64,000 bases of DNA from an uncultured bacterium (lineage in GTDB: Bacteria; Gemmatimonadota; Gemmatimonadetes; Gemmatimonadales; GWC2-71-9), in contig CBFGRM010000002.1 in the NCBI GenBank assembly GCA_965651205.1, forward strand, positions 15,321 to 79,320, in the 5' to 3' direction. The notes below the pieces were generated by a model. That model was not told the DNA's origin. It worked only from the letters and a program-made list of their open reading frames with translations, and ran no database searches. The number at the start of each line of letters is the position of its first letter. The stretch's first letter is position 1. Position numbers and translations under genes: made by a program. Shown piece after piece: positions 13,810 through 22,445 of this stretch.

Positions 13810-14538
13810 ATGCGAGCCCGATTTATTGCAGCAGCGGTCCTGGCAATGGCGATCCCAGCCGTTGTCGGCGCCCAGAACAACACCGGCGGAAGCGGCTGGA
13901 CCGTTGACCGCAACGTCAACCCCGGCGACTTCGGAAGCTGGACCGGTCCGCAGGCCGTGGCGGTGCCCGGCAGCGGCCAGCCCGATGTCTGGACCACTGA
14001 CGGCAACGCGAGCTGGATCAGCGCCTGGGGCAACTTCAGCGGCCCCGGCGGTGCCGGTGATTACAATCGCACCAACGACGCCAATCACCGCTACACCTAT
14101 CTCTTCACGTACACCTTCGGCGCCCCGCTCGGTGGCGGCTCGATCGCGTTCGATATGGGATGGGACAACATCCTCAAGAGCTTCCAGTTCGACAACGGCG
14201 GGGTGCTCTCGCCGGTGAGCGCCTACAACATCGCCGGCGCGGGCCAGCAGACTCCAGTCGATCAGTGGTTCGGCTTCTGCCGTACCGGTGACGCGATGTA
14301 CCCCTCGGGCAACGGCGTCTGCACCACCTCATTCGTGGTGCCGGTTGCCGCTGGCGCCACCTCGATGACCTTCGAGCTGTGGGGCGATGGCCAGACCGAC
14401 GCGATGTGGCTGGCCTGGGATCAGGCGTCGATCCCCACCGAAACCGTCCCCGAGCCGGCGACGATGACGCTGCTCGCGACCGGCCTCGCCGGCCTGGCGG
14501 GATCCTCGATCCGTCGGCGCCGCCAGCGTCAGTCGTAA
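13810..14538 (+). CDS. secreted PEP-CTERM sorting-domain protein
   Basis: AGGAG lies 6 nt before ATG 13810. The signal peptide is MRARFIAAAVLAMAIPAVVGAQ, and the C-terminus VPEPATMTLLATGLAGLAGSSIRRRR is a PEP-CTERM anchor. Confidence 0.8.
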   Translation: MRARFIAAAVLAMAIPAVVGAQNNTGGSGWTVDRNVNPGDFGSWTGPQAVAVPGSGQPDVWTTDGNASWISAWGNFSGPGGAGDYNRTNDANHRYTYLFTYTFGAPLGGGSIAFDMGWDNILKSFQFDNGGVLSPVSAYNIAGAGQQTPVDQWFGFCRTGDAMYPSGNGVCTTSFVVPVAAGATSMTFELWGDGQTDAMWLAWDQASIPTETVPEPATMTLLATGLAGLAGSSIRRRRQRQS

Positions 14539-16325: not shown

Positions 16326-16563
16326 CAGCGACTCCCGACAGGAGGGCAGAAACAAGAACGGCGCAACTCCTGAACCACGAAGTAGCGCCGCTGACCGTAC
16401 GATGGCGGGGAGGTGGTCTTGAAGCCCGGGGAGAAACGCTTGGCGTCCTCACCCCGTCGTCCGTCTTCCCCACTGCGGAGGCGTGACGTCGGACGAAGCA
16501 TTCGGACCCATCCTCGGACACGTTGGCTCAAGTACGTCTGTCCCCCCGCCACCGTGCGGCCAA

Positions 16564-16572
16564 TGGTATAAT
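16564..16572 (+). promoter_or_regulatory. extended -10 promoter element (TGgTATAAT)
   Basis: A perfect TATAAT at 16567..16572 is preceded by TGN. It lies ~50 nt upstream of the small membrane ORF start. Confidence 0.3.
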
Positions 16573-16621
16573 ACCGACCGGTACATCCGCCGTCAAACAC
16601 CCTGCACCGCCCGAGGCGCCC

Positions 16622-16780
16622 GTGCGTGAACTCCTGGTCGGCATCTTCCTGCTCGCGTTCTGGGTGGCGGTGCAGTTCCTCGTCAAACCGGCCAGCGGCT
16701 GGCTGCATCTGCTGCTGATCGCGGGCGCGGTACTGGTGATCAGGGGCGTGGTGCTGCGCGACGCCGAGCGCCACGGCTGA
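16622..16780 (+). CDS. small two-TM membrane protein, hypothetical (GTG start guessed)
   Basis: The hydrophobic segments LLVGIFLLAFWVAVQFLV and WLHLLLIAGAVLVI are present. No homology was recognised. Confidence 0.3.
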   Translation: MRELLVGIFLLAFWVAVQFLVKPASGWLHLLLIAGAVLVIRGVVLRDAERHG

Positions 16781-16781
16781 A

Positions 16782-17978
16782 CTACCGGGCCGCCGGGGAC
16801 AGCCAGGCGTGGGCTGCCCGCCGCCCGGCATCGCGCAGCACCGACGGCTCAGCCACCATCGAAATCCGCACGTAGGGCGTGCCACCGGGTCCGAAGCCGC
16901 TTCCCGGGGTGATCACGATCCGCTCCTCGGCCAGCAGGCGCTCAGTAAGTCCCCAGTCGGTGGTTCCCTCGGGCACCGGGATCCACAGGTACATCCCGGC
17001 CGCCGGCGGCTTGACAGTGAGCCCGGATTCGGCAAAGCCCTCGATCGCCGCGGCAAACCTGGCCCGGTAACCCTCACGGATCCCTGCCGACAGTTCCTCG
17101 GCGTTGGCAAAGGCGTAGGCGCCGGCACGCTGCACGATGGTGGGCACGCCATACCCCACCAGGGTGCGATAGCTGTTGAGCGTCGTGATCACGTCGCGTC
17201 GGCCCGCCACCACGCCAAGTCGCATCCCGGCCATCGAGAAATTCTTCGAGCCGCTGTGAACTTCGATTGCAACGTCGCGCGCGCCATCCACTTCGAACAC
17301 GCTGGGCGCCGGTGGACCGTGCTGCACCAGCTCGCTGTAGGCGATGTCGCTGATCAGGATGATGTCGTGGCGACGGCAGAACTCCACCGCCTCGCTCCAG
17401 CGCTCACGAGTGGTGATCGCGCCGGTGGGGTTGTTCGGAAAATTGAGCAGCAGGAACTTGGCCCGGCGGGCCGTGTCGTCCGGCACTGCAGCCAGGTCGG
17501 GCCAGTAGTCATCGGCACCGTGCACCGGCAGTCGCACCAGGTCGGCACCGGCAGCCAGCACTGCGCGCTCATAGACCGGATACGCCACGTCGGCGATCAG
17601 CATCGCGTCGCCGGGCTCGCAGTACGCGGCAACCAGGTTGGCGATCGCTTCCTTGGCACCCGCGGTGGGGGTGACCTCGGCCGGGGTTTCGAAGGTGACG
17701 CCGAATCGTCGGGTGATGAAGTCGTTGAATGCCTCGTGGAACGCCGGTTCGCCGGTCATCACCGGGTATCCGTGCGACCTGGTGTCGCGTGCGGCCCTGG
17801 CAACCGACTCGATCAGCCCCGGTGGCATCGGCTGGTCGGGTGAACCCAGCGAGAGATCGAGCACTTTCGCACCGGTCGCCTCGACAGCGCGCTTCTTGCC
17901 GATCAGGGTGGTGAAGACATAGGGCTGAATCGACTGCAGGATCCTGGTCGGGCGGGGCACGGCACACTCCAGAGGCAA
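16782..17978 (-). CDS. class I/II PLP-dependent aminotransferase (candidate aromatic/prephenate aminotransferase by operon context)
   Basis: 398 aa with LNFPNNPTG and the PLP-lysine motif SGSKNFSMAGMRLG. It lies 48 nt downstream of aroH on the same strand. Confidence 0.8.
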   Translation of the reverse strand: MPLECAVPRPTRILQSIQPYVFTTLIGKKRAVEATGAKVLDLSLGSPDQPMPPGLIESVARAARDTRSHGYPVMTGEPAFHEAFNDFITRRFGVTFETPAEVTPTAGAKEAIANLVAAYCEPGDAMLIADVAYPVYERAVLAAGADLVRLPVHGADDYWPDLAAVPDDTARRAKFLLLNFPNNPTGAITTRERWSEAVEFCRRHDIILISDIAYSELVQHGPPAPSVFEVDGARDVAIEVHSGSKNFSMAGMRLGVVAGRRDVITTLNSYRTLVGYGVPTIVQRAGAYAFANAEELSAGIREGYRARFAAAIEGFAESGLTVKPPAAGMYLWIPVPEGTTDWGLTERLLAEERIVITPGSGFGPGGTPYVRISMVAEPSVLRDAGRRAAHAWLSPAAR

Positions 17979-18026: not shown

Positions 18027-18440
18027 TCATTGCATCGTGCCACTGGCAAGGTCGGGACGCAGTCGCACCGCATCGCGAAGGTAGACGTGTCTGGGAGGAG
18101 TGCCGTTCCAGGAGCGTTCCACGTGCAGCAGCACGCGCAGGCAGCGCGGCAGTCCGGCCGGCACCGGAATCTCGGTGGTGCAGATCAGCGGCACCTGGTT
18201 CCAGCCGGCCGCCCGCGCAGCACCTGCCGGAAATGCGCTCACCAGGTCGGGAGTCACTGTGAAGATCGCCGAGATCACTTCTTCGTCGCTGAGCGCGTTC
18301 TCCCGGCGCAGTGCGCCGATCAATTCGTCCACCGCACCGGCGATGCCGTCGGGAGTGTCGCGGTCCACCGATATCGCGCCGCGAATGCCGCGCACCGTGC
18401 GGATGTCGAGTGCCCGCGCGATCAATGTGCGGATGCTCAC
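18027..18440 (-). CDS. aroH: chorismate mutase, AroH type
   Basis: VRGIRGAISV...FTVTPDLVSAFPAGAARAAGWNQVPLICTTEIPVPAGLPRCLRVLLH matches the AroH fold signature. It has an ATGA-type 4-nt overlap with pheA. Confidence 0.85.
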   Translation of the reverse strand: MSIRTLIARALDIRTVRGIRGAISVDRDTPDGIAGAVDELIGALRRENALSDEEVISAIFTVTPDLVSAFPAGAARAAGWNQVPLICTTEIPVPAGLPRCLRVLLHVERSWNGTPPRHVYLRDAVRLRPDLASGTMQ

Positions 18441-19003
18441 GCCGCAACCACCTGTTGAGCCGCGCGGCGGCGCACCACGACGAATGTGGTCCGGTTGTCG
18501 GGGGCATCGGCGATGTCACTCGCGAGACTGACCAGGCCGTATCGCTCGGCGGCCTCGATCGGCGCGATCGCGGCGCGAGTCCAGTCGCGATCGGCGGCGA
18601 TCGCACGGGCGGCACCGGCTGTGTCACCCACGGCGCGCGGTGCCAGTCGCCTTGCCGACAACCACCGGGTGCATTGCGCCAGGGCCACCGGGTGCGATTC
18701 GGCCCACCTGAGACTGGCCAGGTCGGCGCCTGGCAGGGCCAGCAGGCAGTGAGCGATTCGTTGATCGAAGCGATCCGTGATCTCGAGGCTGGTCCACTCC
18801 TCCAGCACCCTGCTGGCGGCCTCGACTTCGCCCACCACCGTGTTCCACACCGGCAGCACGCCCAGGTCGGCACGCCCAGCCATCACCGCGGCGGCCACGG
18901 CGCCGAAGTCAGCCAGTCCGCTGGTACTTGCGCCCGGGTGGCGCGCGCTCGCGGCGATCTGGCTGTAGGCACCCGGGACTCCCTGATACACGATCCGCAT
19001 CAC
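18437..19003 (-). CDS. pheA: prephenate dehydratase, catalytic (PDT) domain only, no ACT domain
   Basis: RIVYQGVPGAYSQ...ESHPVALAQC...DNRTTFVVV. The ORF ends ~10 aa after the N-TRF-like motif, where the ACT domain normally begins. Confidence 0.8.
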   Translation of the reverse strand: MMRIVYQGVPGAYSQIAASARHPGASTSGLADFGAVAAAVMAGRADLGVLPVWNTVVGEVEAASRVLEEWTSLEITDRFDQRIAHCLLALPGADLASLRWAESHPVALAQCTRWLSARRLAPRAVGDTAGAARAIAADRDWTRAAIAPIEAAERYGLVSLASDIADAPDNRTTFVVVRRRAAQQVVAA

Positions 19004-19013
19004 ATCTGCTCCC

Positions 19014-19056
19014 GAAAAAGAAAGCGGCCCTCTCGAGGGTCGAGAGGGCCGCGGGG
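19014..19056 (-). terminator. intrinsic terminator of the Phe attenuator (leader of pheA operon)
   Basis: On the minus strand: GCGGCCCUCUCGA-ccc-UCGAGAGGGCCGC (13-bp perfect stem) followed by UUUCUUUUU. It lies 11 nt upstream of the pheA start region. Confidence 0.7.
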
Positions 19057-19080
19057 TCTGTTGCTGGGCACTGAGTCCTG

Positions 19081-19158
19081 CTAGTGCGTACGCCGATCCC
19101 GGACCCTCTTCCCAAAGAAGGCCGCAAAAAACTCGGCGAGGCGATAGCTGTGCGTCAT
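19081..19158 (-). CDS. candidate Phe leader peptide (25 aa: MTHSYRLAEFFAAFFGKRVRDRRTH)
   Basis: The ORF runs from ATG 19158 to TAG 19083..19081. It has four Phe codons within six (UUU UUU GCG GCC UUC UUU). TTGACG-N18-TAGCGT lies upstream, with the -10 ending 7 nt before the ATG. Confidence 0.55.
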   Translation of the reverse strand: MTHSYRLAEFFAAFFGKRVRDRRTH

Positions 19159-19269
19159 TGCAACAACGCTACAGGGCGGGGTATCCCGGCGTCAACCCCC
19201 CGCGGTAAATTGAGCCTTGGCCCCGAGGTCGGCGGCCCGCCCGACCGCGCTTTCCCGGAGTTGCCACTG

Positions 19270-19800
19270 ATGCCAGCCAGCAGCCAGGACGCCTTCGATG
19301 CCGCATTCCTTGCGGCATACAGCGAACTTCGCCGGCTGGCGGCCCACCTCCAGCGCAACGACCCCGCGGCAACCATCGATCCCACCGGACTGGTCAACGC
19401 GGCCTGGCTCAAGCTGGCCGGCACGCCCGAGCTGGCCGACACCTCGCCGGTCCACTTCAGGCGGATCGCCACTCGGGCGATGCGGCAGGTGCTGGTGGAA
19501 GCCGCTCGCCGCCGCAACGCGGACAAGCGCGGCGCCGGCGAGGCGATAACGGTGACGCTGGACGAATCGGGCCAGTCGGGGCCTCACACCGCCACTGCCA
19601 GCGAGGTGCTGGCGCTGCACGATGCGCTCGACGTGCTGGCGAGCAAGCATCCCCGCCCGGCAGCGGTGGTCGAGGCGCGCTACTTCGGCGGCCTCACCAC
19701 GGTGGAGGTGGCAGAGACGCTGGGCATCAGCGAAGCCACGGTGCTGCGCGACTGGCGCACGGCGCGCGCCTGGCTGGCAAGCGAACTGGCGTCCGACTGA
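19270..19800 (+). CDS. ECF-type RNA polymerase sigma factor (Sigma70_ECF family usually paired with Ser/Thr kinases)
   Basis: YSELRRLAAHLQRNDPAATIDPTGLVNAAWLKL and VVEARYFGGLTTVEVAETLGISEATVLRDWRTARAWL. The stop overlaps the kinase start (TGATG). Confidence 0.85.
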   Translation: MPASSQDAFDAAFLAAYSELRRLAAHLQRNDPAATIDPTGLVNAAWLKLAGTPELADTSPVHFRRIATRAMRQVLVEAARRRNADKRGAGEAITVTLDESGQSGPHTATASEVLALHDALDVLASKHPRPAAVVEARYFGGLTTVEVAETLGISEATVLRDWRTARAWLASELASD

Positions 19801-22445
19801 TGACCGATCAGGCGTGGGAAGAACTGCAGCGACTGTTCGAGGAAGCACTGCTGCTCGACCCCACCGCACGTGCAGCACTGATCGCCGGGGTGTCCGCCAG
19901 CAATCCTGCCCTGGCGGCCAGGCTCGAGGCGATGCTCGTGCACGACACCGTGCAGGTCGAGGCACTCGACCGGAACCTGGCCGAAACCGCGTCTCGACTG
20001 CTAGGTCGCGAAGTGCCGGCGTCGATCGGTCCGTATCACGTGCTCCGACTGCTCGGCGAAGGCGGAATGGGCGCGGTGTGGCTGGTCGAGCGGACCGATA
20101 CCGGTGGTCTGGCCGCCCTGAAGCTGTTGCGCGACGCCTGGATTTCGCCGGGGCGAAGGGCCCGCTTCGCCGCCGAGCAGCGAGCGCTGGCACGGCTCAA
20201 TCACGCCGGTATAGCACAATTGCACGACGCGGGCACCCTTCCCGACGGCACACCGTGGTTCGTGATGGAGTATGTCGAAGGTGAGCCCATCACCACCTGG
20301 TGCGCGATGCGCAACTGCACTGTTGCCGAGCGCATCGCCCTGCTTCGCGCCGTGGCGCTCACGGTTCAGCACGCCCACGCGCACGCCGTGATCCACCGCG
20401 ACCTCAAGCCGACCAACATCCTCGTCACCGGCGACGGCAACGTCAAGTTGCTGGATTTCGGCATCAGCAAGCAGCTCGATGATTCGGGCGAAGCCAGCGA
20501 GCGCACCGCCACCGGGATGCGGATGCTCACGCCTGCGTACGCCGCTGCGGAGCAGTACACGGGCGGGCCGATCGGAGTTCACACCGACGTGTTCGCCCTG
20601 GGTGCACTTGGCTTCGAGCTGCTCACAGGCAAGAAACCGTTCGCCGACGCCGGCTCCAGCGAATCAGAACAGCTTGCGGCTCGACTTGCCGAGCTGCCCC
20701 GACCGTCCACGATCGGACTGGCTGGAACCGGTGCACCCGGTCGCGCATCCTGGGATGAACTCGACGTGGTGATCCGGAAGGCGATGCACCCCGACCCGGC
20801 GCGGCGCTACATATCGACCGAAGCACTGGTCCGCGACCTCGACAATTACCTCCGGGGGCGTCCGCTCGAGGCACGGCCCGACTCGTTCGGTTACCGGGCG
20901 GGCCGTTTCCTCCGCCGCAACTGGCAACCGGTGGCGGCCGCCACGGTGCTGCTGGCCGCGCTGATCGGCCTGACCAGCTTCTACACCGTGCGGCTCTCGC
21001 AGGCGCGGGATGCTGCAGTCACCGAGGCGGAACGCACCGCACGGATTCAGGCTTTCGTGACCGCGCTGTTCCAGGGAGGCGACGACGCTGCCGGCCCACC
21101 CGACTCGCTGCGGGTGCGTGACCTGATCGATCGCGGTGTGCGCGAAGCGGTGGCGCTCCACGAGGAGCCACTGGTCCAGGCCGACCTGTTCACCACGCTG
21201 GGCACGCTGCAACTCCAGATGGGCCACCTCGATGCTGCCGACTCGCTCTATTCGCGCACGCTTTCACTGCGCCGGGCCGAACTGGGTGATGGTCATCCGG
21301 ATGTTGCCGCCACCCTCACCGCGCTGGGAAGGTTGCGGATCGAGCAGGCCCGGTTGGCTGCCGCGGACACGCTGCTGAGACAGGCGACGGCTATCATCGA
21401 CGGCACGCTCAGGCCCACCGACCCGCGGGCCATCGCCGCACACGCCGCCCTGGGCGCCCTGCACCAGGAACGTTCCGACTGGCCGGCGGCCATCGCCCGG
21501 CAGCAGTCGGTGCTGGACCGCCTGCAGGCCACTGCCGGCGCTCCGCTGGACATTGCCGACGCACAGGTGCAACTCGCCAACACACTTTTCTACGCTGGCG
21601 AGCTCGAGGCATCGGATTCGATCAACCGGCTGGCCCTGGGCACCTATCGCAGGGTGCGCGGCGACGACCATCCCCGGGTGGCGGAGGTGCTGGTCAACCT
21701 CGGCGCCGCCGAGTTCGAGCGGGGCAACTATGCAGCAGCGGAAGGGCTGTTCCGCGAAGCACTGAGTCGAACCGAGAAGTGGCACGGTCCCTCCCACCCG
21801 GCTACTGCATCGTCGCTCACGATGCTCGGGCGGGCGCTGACGTTCCAGGATCGCCGAGATGAAGCGCTCGAAGCCCTGTCGCGGTCACTGGTGATCCAGG
21901 AGGCGCACTTTGGCCCGGATCATCCGCGGGTCGCGTCGGCACTCAACGAAGTTGCCACGATCGAGATGCAGAATGGCAACTACGCGAGGGCCGAGTCGCT
22001 GTGGCGACGGACCGAACAGATCTACCTGGCAGTGCACGGCGAGCGGCACTGGCTCCTCGGTGTGGCGCGATCCAATCTCGGAACGGTCAACACCCGGATG
22101 GCCAACCTGCCACGCGCCGAGTCGTATTTTCGCCAGGCGATCGAATTGTTCACGGAGTCGCAGGGCCCCGATCACCTCAACACCGGCATCGCGCGCATCA
22201 AGCTGGGACGCGCGCTGCTGGGTCAGCGACGCTGGCGGGAAGCCGTGGCCGAATCACGGGCTGGTCGGGATATCCTGAACGCGCTCGAGGCGGCACCGCG
22301 GGCATTCATCGACGCTGCCACCGACGACATCAAGGCAGCCGAGTCGGCACTGGGCGACAAGGACGAGGCTCAGCCCCTCTCCGGTCAGGCCACTCAGATT
22401 TCCCAGTTCGAGAGCACTATGCCGGTGGTGGCCGGCTCGGGGTGA
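19800..22445 (+). CDS. Ser/Thr protein kinase with one TM segment and a long TPR region
   Basis: Hanks motifs GEGGMGAVW, AALK, HRDLKPTNIL, DFGISK and TPAYAAAEQ are present. The TM is VAAATVLLAALIGLTSFY, followed by TPR repeats (TPR_12-like). Confidence 0.9.
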   Translation: MTDQAWEELQRLFEEALLLDPTARAALIAGVSASNPALAARLEAMLVHDTVQVEALDRNLAETASRLLGREVPASIGPYHVLRLLGEGGMGAVWLVERTDTGGLAALKLLRDAWISPGRRARFAAEQRALARLNHAGIAQLHDAGTLPDGTPWFVMEYVEGEPITTWCAMRNCTVAERIALLRAVALTVQHAHAHAVIHRDLKPTNILVTGDGNVKLLDFGISKQLDDSGEASERTATGMRMLTPAYAAAEQYTGGPIGVHTDVFALGALGFELLTGKKPFADAGSSESEQLAARLAELPRPSTIGLAGTGAPGRASWDELDVVIRKAMHPDPARRYISTEALVRDLDNYLRGRPLEARPDSFGYRAGRFLRRNWQPVAAATVLLAALIGLTSFYTVRLSQARDAAVTEAERTARIQAFVTALFQGGDDAAGPPDSLRVRDLIDRGVREAVALHEEPLVQADLFTTLGTLQLQMGHLDAADSLYSRTLSLRRAELGDGHPDVAATLTALGRLRIEQARLAAADTLLRQATAIIDGTLRPTDPRAIAAHAALGALHQERSDWPAAIARQQSVLDRLQATAGAPLDIADAQVQLANTLFYAGELEASDSINRLALGTYRRVRGDDHPRVAEVLVNLGAAEFERGNYAAAEGLFREALSRTEKWHGPSHPATASSLTMLGRALTFQDRRDEALEALSRSLVIQEAHFGPDHPRVASALNEVATIEMQNGNYARAESLWRRTEQIYLAVHGERHWLLGVARSNLGTVNTRMANLPRAESYFRQAIELFTESQGPDHLNTGIARIKLGRALLGQRRWREAVAESRAGRDILNALEAAPRAFIDAATDDIKAAESALGDKDEAQPLSGQATQISQFESTMPVVAGSG

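Follow-up and report, generated by a model that had tools for sequence, protein, structure and literature searches.

The pheA-aroH-aminotransferase operon found in a 64,000-nucleotide (nt) stretch of contig CBFGRM010000002.1, from an uncultured bacterium of the Gemmatimonadales (the window in what follows, to whose full length all positions refer), is preceded by a leader which is very probably a ribosome-mediated, phenylalanine (Phe)-responsive transcription attenuator, sensing charged tRNA-Phe. The leader and the three genes are all encoded on the minus strand (Table 1). The features combined in the leader are those of an attenuator of this class: a Phe-rich leader open reading frame (ORF), a terminator (helix 3:4) placed before pheA, an antiterminator (helix 2:3) exclusive with it, and a further helix (1:2) which overlaps the Phe codons. 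At the level of sequence and comparison, the parts of the leader and their conservation are established, as are the mutual exclusion of the helices and the compensatory changes that link them; the ribosome-mediated 1:2 / 2:3 / 3:4 reading, advanced in an original prediction for this DNA, is thus supported by conservation and compensatory changes in 30 Gemmatimonadales sequences.

According to the proposed mechanism, the transcript would begin at the leader ATG or no more than about 3 nt from it, so that translation of the 25-codon ORF would be that of a leaderless mRNA. With ample Phe, the ribosome would pass the Phe codons and region 2 and reach the stop codon 15 nt beyond, where its 5' edge would abut region 2; the latter would then be covered by the ribosome or, after the ribosome leaves, re-paired with region 1, and region 3, left free, would form the 3:4 hairpin, which together with the U-tract would end transcription 14 nt short of pheA. 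If Phe-tRNA runs short, stalling would occur on the Phe codons at 19131-19114, just upstream of and inside region 1; since the stalled ribosome would mask region 1, region 2 would take region 3 on its emergence, the terminator would not form, and the operon would be transcribed.

Conservation of the leader and of its alternative helices

In the window, the leader ATG (19158) is found 7 nt past the -10 hexamer, without a Shine-Dalgarno (SD) site, and the stop codon TAG occupies 19083-19081; four of the 25 codons are for Phe (TTT TTT at 19131-19126, TTC TTT at 19119-19114). The terminator hairpin, for which the terminator scan gives 13 pairs (10 of them G-C), starts 28 nt past the leader stop. 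These parts were read correctly in the original prediction, whose coordinates for the two hexamers, the ATG, the ORF with its 4 Phe codons and the 13-bp hairpin with its U-run are all confirmed from the sequence; the 1:2 and 2:3 helices, which had been paired by hand, are reproduced by ViennaRNA. In these folds, helix 1:2 pairs 19124-19115 with 19110-19100 (-12.7 kcal/mol), helix 2:3 pairs AGAGGGUCCGGG (19109-19098) with 19055-19043 in 12 bp with one bulged C (19051), and the terminator helix 3:4 has -28.4 kcal/mol; the full leader fold has z = -3.0 versus dinucleotide shuffles. The small middle hairpin which holds the stop codon is nested within the 2:3 antiterminator, and its stretch aligns with insertions and deletions (indels) across leaders. 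Over positions 1-60000 of the window, the 60 kb scanned for terminators, the pheA-leader hairpin is the sole strong or long terminator-like site, the others having 5-8 pairs; weak terminator hits number 3, 3 and 5 per 20 kb versus 6-9 expected from shuffles, intrinsic terminators of the canonical kind being scarce in this genome. The distance from the U-tract to the pheA ATG (19000) being only 14 nt, no separate pheA promoter fits between the two.

With one genome scanned for each GTDB species, 80 loci (L001-L080) were obtained, and the same element was found before the prephenate dehydratase (PDT) gene in every locus in which the PDT is at least 50% identical and the upstream DNA is present, that is, in 29 loci (L001-L028 minus the truncated L012, plus L031 and L059), all from GTDB species representatives within the Gemmatimonadales. 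Two more copies, both before PDT-AroH, are carried by metagenome contigs (L091 and L093); the region 1-2 pattern used to scan the metagenomes was too loose, and of the 28 loci that it matched, those other than L091 and L093 were rejected as leaders because they are coding sequences for AAYLxEEAG-like peptides. Thirty leader sequences were aligned with MAFFT (alignment A2), the alignment not being fitted to any structure; in this comparison of orthologous pheA upstream regions, which had been suggested along with the original prediction, conservation extends to the Phe mini-ORF with its aromatic codon cluster, to the terminator and to both alternative helices. Every one of the 30 sites has TTGACN followed, after 17 or 18 nt, by TAnnnT, and then, after 5-9 nt, by the ATG, leaving no space for an SD site, and in every case the leader is located before the PDT-AroH operon. 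The covariance model R1, built from the 30 leaders and comprising 144 positions, matches the window leader with 107 bits (E = 4e-28). A second R1 match in the window, at 14083-14156 on the plus strand (17.9 bits), is taken as spurious: it covers 74 nt only and reads as coding (YTYLFTYTFG).

The RNAalifold consensus of the alignment consists of the 1:2 and 3:4 hairpins only, which were thus found independently. Helix 1:2 (columns 44-54 with 58-67) has 93% of cells paired and 5 compensatory pairs, and helix 3:4 (columns 119-130 with 138-149) has 92% paired and again 5 compensatory pairs; taken together, the two helices reach 92.7% of cells paired with 10 compensatory pairs, and none of 500 shuffles reaches any of five measures. 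The competing helix 2:3 is paired in 91.7% over the 30 sequences, compared with 50-62% in controls with the partner strand shifted by 1-3 columns, and shows compensatory pairs of its own (61:126 is G-C in 15 and A-U in 11 sequences; 62:125 is G-C in 25 and A-U in 3). In particular, columns 51, 61, 126 and 142, one in each strand, change together between C/G and U/A; two hairpins independent of each other would have nothing to gain from sharing their stem sequences, and a linkage of this kind across all four strands marks regions that must pair alternately.

Table 1. Features of the pheA leader and of the operon that it precedes (positions in the window)
Feature	Position	Strand	Basis
-35-like hexamer TTGACG, leader promoter	19190..19195	-	sequence; TTGACN in 30/30 orthologous sites, usually preceded by CCC
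-10-like hexamer TAGCGT	19166..19171	-	18-nt spacer from -35; TAnnnT in 30/30 sites
Leader ORF (pheL-like), 25 codons + TAG, MTHSYRLAEFFAAFFGKRVRDRRTH	19081..19158	-	frame open in 30/30 sites
Regulatory codon cluster F10 F11 A12 A13 F14 F15	19114..19131	-	aromatic codon counts, 30 leaders
Region 1, CGGCCUUCUU, 5' strand of anti-antiterminator	19115..19124	-	fold and covariation; overlaps codons A12 to F15
Region 2, AAGAGGGUCCGGG, partner of region 1 or region 3	19098..19110	-	folds; 2:3 pairing over 30 sequences
Small middle hairpin GCACUAG...AGUGC, holding the leader stop codon	19068..19087	-	folds of WIN, L001, L009, L013
Region 3, CCCGCGGCCCUCU, terminator 5' arm and antiterminator 3' strand	19043..19055	-	folds, column pairing
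Intrinsic terminator hairpin (3:4), GCGGCCCTCTCGA-CCC-TCGAGAGGGCCGC	19024..19052	-	terminator scan, fold, covariation
U-tract of terminator, TTTCTTTTT / UUUCUUUUU	19015..19023	-	sequence, scan; T-rich run after hairpin in orthologues too
SD-like GGGAG of pheA, outside the terminator stem	19009..19013	-	sequence; GGAG-like strings before pheA in orthologues
pheA, prephenate dehydratase, 187 amino acids, PDT only, without ACT domain	18437..19000	-	Pfam PF00800, E = 1.9e-42, residues 3-179
aroH-type chorismate mutase (CM_1)	18027..18440	-	Pfam PF07736, E = 9e-40
Class I/II aminotransferase, third gene, exact start codon uncertain	16782..17978	-	Pfam PF00155, E = 5e-53

The leader reading frame and the competing explanations

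The leader frame is open in 30 of 30 sequences, one of the other two frames in 12. The ORF has 22-28 codons, and its length varies solely by N-terminal indels, all of them multiples of 3; the stop codon is found 15 nt past region 2 in 26 of the 30. Aromatic residues, mostly Phe, occupy five alignment codons, each aromatic in 22-28 of the 30 sequences, which lie within the 27 nt before region 1 and inside region 1; no aromatic codon is found N-terminal of this cluster, and two stray ones lie C-terminal of region 2. Phe makes up 13.9% of the residues of the 30 leaders versus 2.5% in the window genes, and the rare codons are favoured, TTT:TTC being 73:35 in the leaders versus 10:69 in the window genes, and TAT:TAC 29:11 versus 17:35 (the Tyr5 codon of the window leader, at 19146-19144, is TAT); moreover, TTT and TTC swap at the same alignment positions among leaders. 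The FFxxFF arrangement, expected by the original prediction to be the conserved motif, is not the rule: FFAAFF is found just in the window and in its closest relative L006, and the relatives show an alternating pattern such as AYRFAFAFAAFL or A-Y-R-F-A-F-A-F-A-A-F-L (for example AYRFAFAFAAFLxERAGSRRTR). As to the start of the ORF, transcription would begin 6-8 nt after the -10 hexamer and the ATG lies 5-9 nt after it, so that a 5' untranslated region of 0 to about 3 nt is predicted; the ORF is therefore predicted to be leaderless, its ATG coinciding with the predicted transcription start or lying about 3 nt from it at most, unlike pheA, which has a GGAG-type SD site.

Several observations weigh against the attenuator reading and have to be set beside those in its favour. 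The transcription start, the translation of the ORF, the stalling of the ribosome, the premature 3' ends and the response to Phe are all predictions drawn from the features described above, and no report of leaderless translation in Gemmatimonadota was found in the literature searched. The TAGCGT/TTGACG pair was not called by a generic promoter scanner (TAGCGT matches TATAAT at 3 of 6 positions), so that the promoter status of the hexamers rests on their conservation. The +2 frame is open in 20 of the 30 sequences, open frames not being rare in DNA of 67% guanine plus cytosine (GC), and the variability of the three codon positions upstream of region 1 (0.98, 1.11 and 1.16 bits) rises only slightly at the third, a codon-position test which is weakly positive and by itself no proof of coding constraint. 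The covariation derives mostly from a few clade-level changes, and the independent covariation events are consequently few. Finally, in an equilibrium model in which a 30-nt ribosome footprint was stepped over every codon of all 30 leaders, the terminator usually wins in the window and in many relatives even with the ribosome on the Phe codons or with region 1 masked, and helix 2:3 dominates only where a nested 1:4 + 2:3 rod can form.

Since the terminator is favoured thermodynamically in the footprint model, the switch must be kinetic, helix 2:3 forming first if region 2 is unoccupied as region 3 emerges; the outcome at the E. coli trp attenuator is likewise decided kinetically. The mean energies over the 30 leaders (-14.1 kcal/mol for 1:2, -36.4 kcal/mol for the 2-to-3 segment including the nested stop-codon hairpin, and -24.2 kcal/mol for 3:4) are consistent with a switch of this kind.

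The alternative helices are the best-supported feature of the element, and they also speak for a terminator/antiterminator switch that is real but set by an RNA-binding protein (TRAP-like or PyrR-like) or by a small-molecule ligand, the ORF and its Phe codons being a by-product of U-rich, G/C-paired sequence. The weakness of the codon-position test and the frequency of open frames in the GC-rich DNA of the window also favour such a switch, as does the conservation of UAUCG and of the C-terminal RRxR*, neither of which has a clear role in the ribosome model. This explanation is nevertheless improbable, because it leaves aside the ATG fixed at 5-9 nt from the -10 hexamer in every site, the N-terminal indels which all preserve the frame, the stop codon at its fixed place, and the aromatic codons confined to the ribosome-relevant stretch, where TTT and TTC interchange. 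The consensus, in turn, consists of two simple hairpins, with no long conserved unpaired stretches and no aptamer-like multi-stem junction, and has no Rfam match, and sequence-dissimilar analogues in two phyla (see below) keep the aromatic ORF and alter the stem sequences.

The fair conservation of the peptide, well seen in the string given above, might also be read as that of a functional small hydrophobic, basic peptide with its own terminator, pheA then being expressed by constitutive leak-through or from an unseen promoter, with no sensing of Phe; leader peptides with functions in trans do exist, such as peTrpL of Sinorhizobium (PMC7298713). This is still harder to credit than a protein- or ligand-set switch, and we regard it as very improbable: in the C-terminal half, what is conserved mostly falls within helices 1:2 and 2:3 and covaries with the terminator, a plain terminator needs no conserved competing helix, promoter space is lacking between the U-tract and pheA, and every copy of the element goes with the Phe operon. 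That an ORF, Phe codons and a hairpin came together between two genes by chance is effectively refuted by the comparative data, for although one 25-codon ORF with 4 Phe in one sequence is only mildly improbable, the arrangement is kept with compensatory changes in all 30 orthologous sites, R1 scores the window leader as stated above, and the terminator has no equal in the 60 kb scanned.

Two further observations concern the 5' part of the ORF. The string UAUCGC (Tyr5-Arg6, 19144-19149, minus strand) belongs to a Tyr-Arg(-Phe) / UAUCG(A/C)UU string which recurs in Gemmatimonadales leaders despite 12-nt shifts and is also found in Acidobacteriota leaders; it could reflect common descent, or be a peptide or stalling motif. 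A long-range helix between CUAUCG (Tyr-Arg codons) and CGAUAG (stop codon) was rejected, being paired in 68.6%, equalled by 92 of 500 shuffles and devoid of covariation.

Relation to known attenuators and to other aromatic leaders

No Rfam match to the window leader was obtained at the gathering threshold, and none to the related loci either; at E <= 10, the segment 18900-19350 gives 7 weak hits, none of which is Phe_leader and none a T-box or riboswitch, and matches such as mir-943 and Pxr were rejected as noise, being partial matches to the terminator hairpin. Given this and the leaderless leader peptides published from elsewhere, the window leader was filed as a new sequence family of a known kind, and the best reading is that it is new for the phylum and of known mechanism.

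The obvious counterpart is pheL, described as gammaproteobacterial, of which 53 genes have been surveyed (PMC3082878). The pheL-pheA leaders of E. coli and other gammaproteobacteria share with the window leader the short Phe-rich ORF, the 1:2 / 2:3 / 3:4 helices, the terminator before pheA and, according to the proposed mechanism, the control by charged tRNA-Phe; sequence and structure similarity, however, is not detectable (no Rfam match at E <= 10), and the window leader differs in lacking an SD site and beginning at the predicted 5' end. The E. coli pheL peptide has about 15 residues with a run of 7 Phe, whereas the window-type peptide has 25 residues with 4-5 Phe interleaved with Ala, and the stop codon of the window leader lies 15 nt beyond region 2, inside the small hairpin. 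The genes controlled also differ: in E. coli the attenuated pheA encodes the P-protein, a chorismate mutase-PDT-ACT fusion, and in the window the operon encodes an ACT-less PDT, a separate AroH mutase and an aminotransferase. With the E. coli trp attenuator, whose terminator is at least as stable as its antiterminator, the element shares the four-region logic and, as proposed, the kinetic decision by ribosome position; it differs in the amino acid that it would sense, in having region 2 wholly inside the ORF, and in the spread of the regulatory codons over about 9 codons in leaders of the window type rather than two adjacent ones.

The closer parallel in terms of initiation is with leaderless attenuators of high-GC bacteria, to which the trp, ilvB, leuA and aroR leaders of Corynebacterium glutamicum belong. 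There, as predicted for the window leader, the ORF is found at the 5' end of the transcript, without an SD site, with cognate codons and with amino-acid biosynthesis genes downstream, and several of these attenuators have, like the window leader, a hairpin and a U-run after the ORF. Further examples are the 14 predicted leaderless leader-peptide attenuators of Deinococcus deserti (PMC4007540), the leaderless trpL, leuL, ilvL and thrL leaders of Streptomyces lividans (PMC8079986) and the leaderless poly-Cys upstream ORFs of mycobacteria (bioRxiv 10.1101/834739); owing to these published cases, the impression conveyed by the original prediction, that an attenuator with a leaderless leader peptide was a novelty for high-GC lineages, is incorrect. 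The three published sets comprise Trp, Leu, Ile/Val, Thr, Ala, Met and Cys leaders and no Phe or pheA leader. The window leader differs from them in belonging to another phylum, Gemmatimonadota, and in that its 5' end is predicted from promoter spacing, whereas theirs are mapped by RNA-seq. For Actinobacteria, a survey reported that Phe operons are not preceded by any conserved RNA element (PMC1262725). In Flavobacteriaceae, an unclassified structured 5' element without an Rfam hit has been reported upstream of pheA, along with clues to leader-peptide attenuation before amino-acid biosynthesis operons (PMC9723704); judging by the accessible part of that report, this is likewise a non-proteobacterial pheA leader without an Rfam hit, the likeness being one of description only, and it differs in occurring in low-GC genomes and in that no claim of a leaderless ORF is made there. 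Literature searches for leader peptides or attenuators in Gemmatimonadetes or Acidobacteria returned nothing relevant; in particular, no published attenuator or leader peptide for Gemmatimonadota was found in them.

R1 also gives weaker, full-length matches in other lineages, which correspond to leader ORFs rich in F, Y and W followed by terminators. In Gemmatimonadaceae, such leaders are found upstream of DAHP (3-deoxy-D-arabino-heptulosonate 7-phosphate) synthase-pheA(ACT) operons, for example MVLSVRHNSWFAFTYFRGYPPGG..., about 1.0-1.5 kb upstream of the PDT gene (L030, L032, L034-L037, L041, L043, L044, L052, L054 and L066); in Acidobacteriota, they are found upstream of chorismate mutase-pheA operons, for example MHTYRFSFGYAYRYYFRV..., at most about 0.65 kb upstream of the PDT gene (L045, L047, L048, L051, L057, L058, L064, L067, L071, L074 and L076). 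In 23 of 23 of these leaders, the best partner of the terminator 5' arm lies inside the ORF, just past the aromatic codons (z from -0.9 to -5.8); an Rfam search of them gave no hit. Because these 23 related leaders share the layout, the layout would appear to be general, the codon mix tracking the pathway step controlled, and attenuation by aromatic leader peptides seems, from sequence comparison, to be widespread in Gemmatimonadota and Acidobacteriota.

A broader proposal can be put forward tentatively, its two parts, taken jointly, being somewhat more apt to fail than to hold: that the two phyla share a large, undescribed set of leaderless aromatic leader peptides with a common Tyr-Arg-Phe / UAUCG core, placed before DAHP synthase-pheA, chorismate mutase-pheA and PDT-AroH operons, with the pheA leader described here as the founding Phe-specific case; and that in the PDT-AroH clade the attenuator has replaced a lost ACT allostery. 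If this were true, feedback on the Phe branch would have moved from the enzyme to the transcript in that clade. The textbook picture of attenuation is unchanged by the present element, which is one more case in line with the idea that high-GC bacteria generally resort to leaderless leader peptides. It also offers a concrete, testable case of amino-acid regulation for Gemmatimonadota, a phylum which is widespread in soil and in which hardly any experimental genetics exists, and a new RNA family and better annotation of these genomes could be built on the 30-sequence alignment and model R1.

The operon and its surroundings

The identities given to the genes by the original prediction (prephenate dehydratase, AroH chorismate mutase, aminotransferase) are borne out by Pfam (Table 1); the aroH start overlaps the pheA stop by 4 nt. 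AroH follows PDT in all the leader-bearing loci, and an aminotransferase follows AroH in about 60% of them, being absent elsewhere. About 100 PDT homologues of about 187 amino acids were found, and those with a named source are from Gemmatimonadota or Gemmatimonadales. All of the 29 leader-bearing loci have an ACT-less PheA of 182-187 amino acids, while most of the leader-less relatives among loci L001-L080 have a PDT with an ACT domain, of about 270-310 amino acids, L032 and L036 being among the few exceptions. In full-length PheA, regulation by Phe binding is the task of the ACT domain; hence, as PheA lacks it here, the attenuator may be the main Phe feedback on the chorismate-to-Phe branch. 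The coincidence of the leader with an ACT-less PheA suggests a trade-off between allosteric and transcriptional feedback.

On the other side of the leader, an extracytoplasmic function (ECF) sigma factor gene (19270-19800, plus strand) and the gene of an 881-residue Ser/Thr kinase with TPR repeats (19800-22445, plus strand), whose stop and start codons overlap, are arranged head-to-head with it. Because these upstream genes are divergent, the terminator hairpin cannot belong to an upstream gene. At least 9 related loci likewise have the sigma factor/kinase pair before pheA and on the other strand (L001, L005-L008, L010, L021, L091 with the kinase only, and L093).

Past the aminotransferase, a second structured RNA of about 170 nt (16561-16393, minus strand) precedes a gene for a QueD-like 6-pyruvoyl-tetrahydropterin synthase (PTPS; ATG at about 16325). 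Even at E <= 5, nothing in Rfam 15 matches it, and it may be a riboswitch-like leader not described so far or else a 6S-like small RNA that has diverged. Upstream of it, TTGACG-17-TATTAT (16596-16568, minus strand) is the best sigma-70-type promoter match in the window. The RNA is conserved at 70-86% DNA identity in more than 30 Gemmatimonadales loci, without a consistent reading frame, and folds into a long rod of 51 pairs, with 95.8% of cells paired and 14 compensatory pairs, values reached by none of 500 shuffles. In most loci it is followed by a GC hairpin and a U-rich run (about 16389-16345 in the window), and in one clade the PTPS start codon directly follows it. Finally, a small, 85-residue ORF (16523-16780, plus strand), convergent to the aminotransferase gene, shows protein-level conservation in related loci, with tblastx matches of 40-57% identity over about 60 amino acids.

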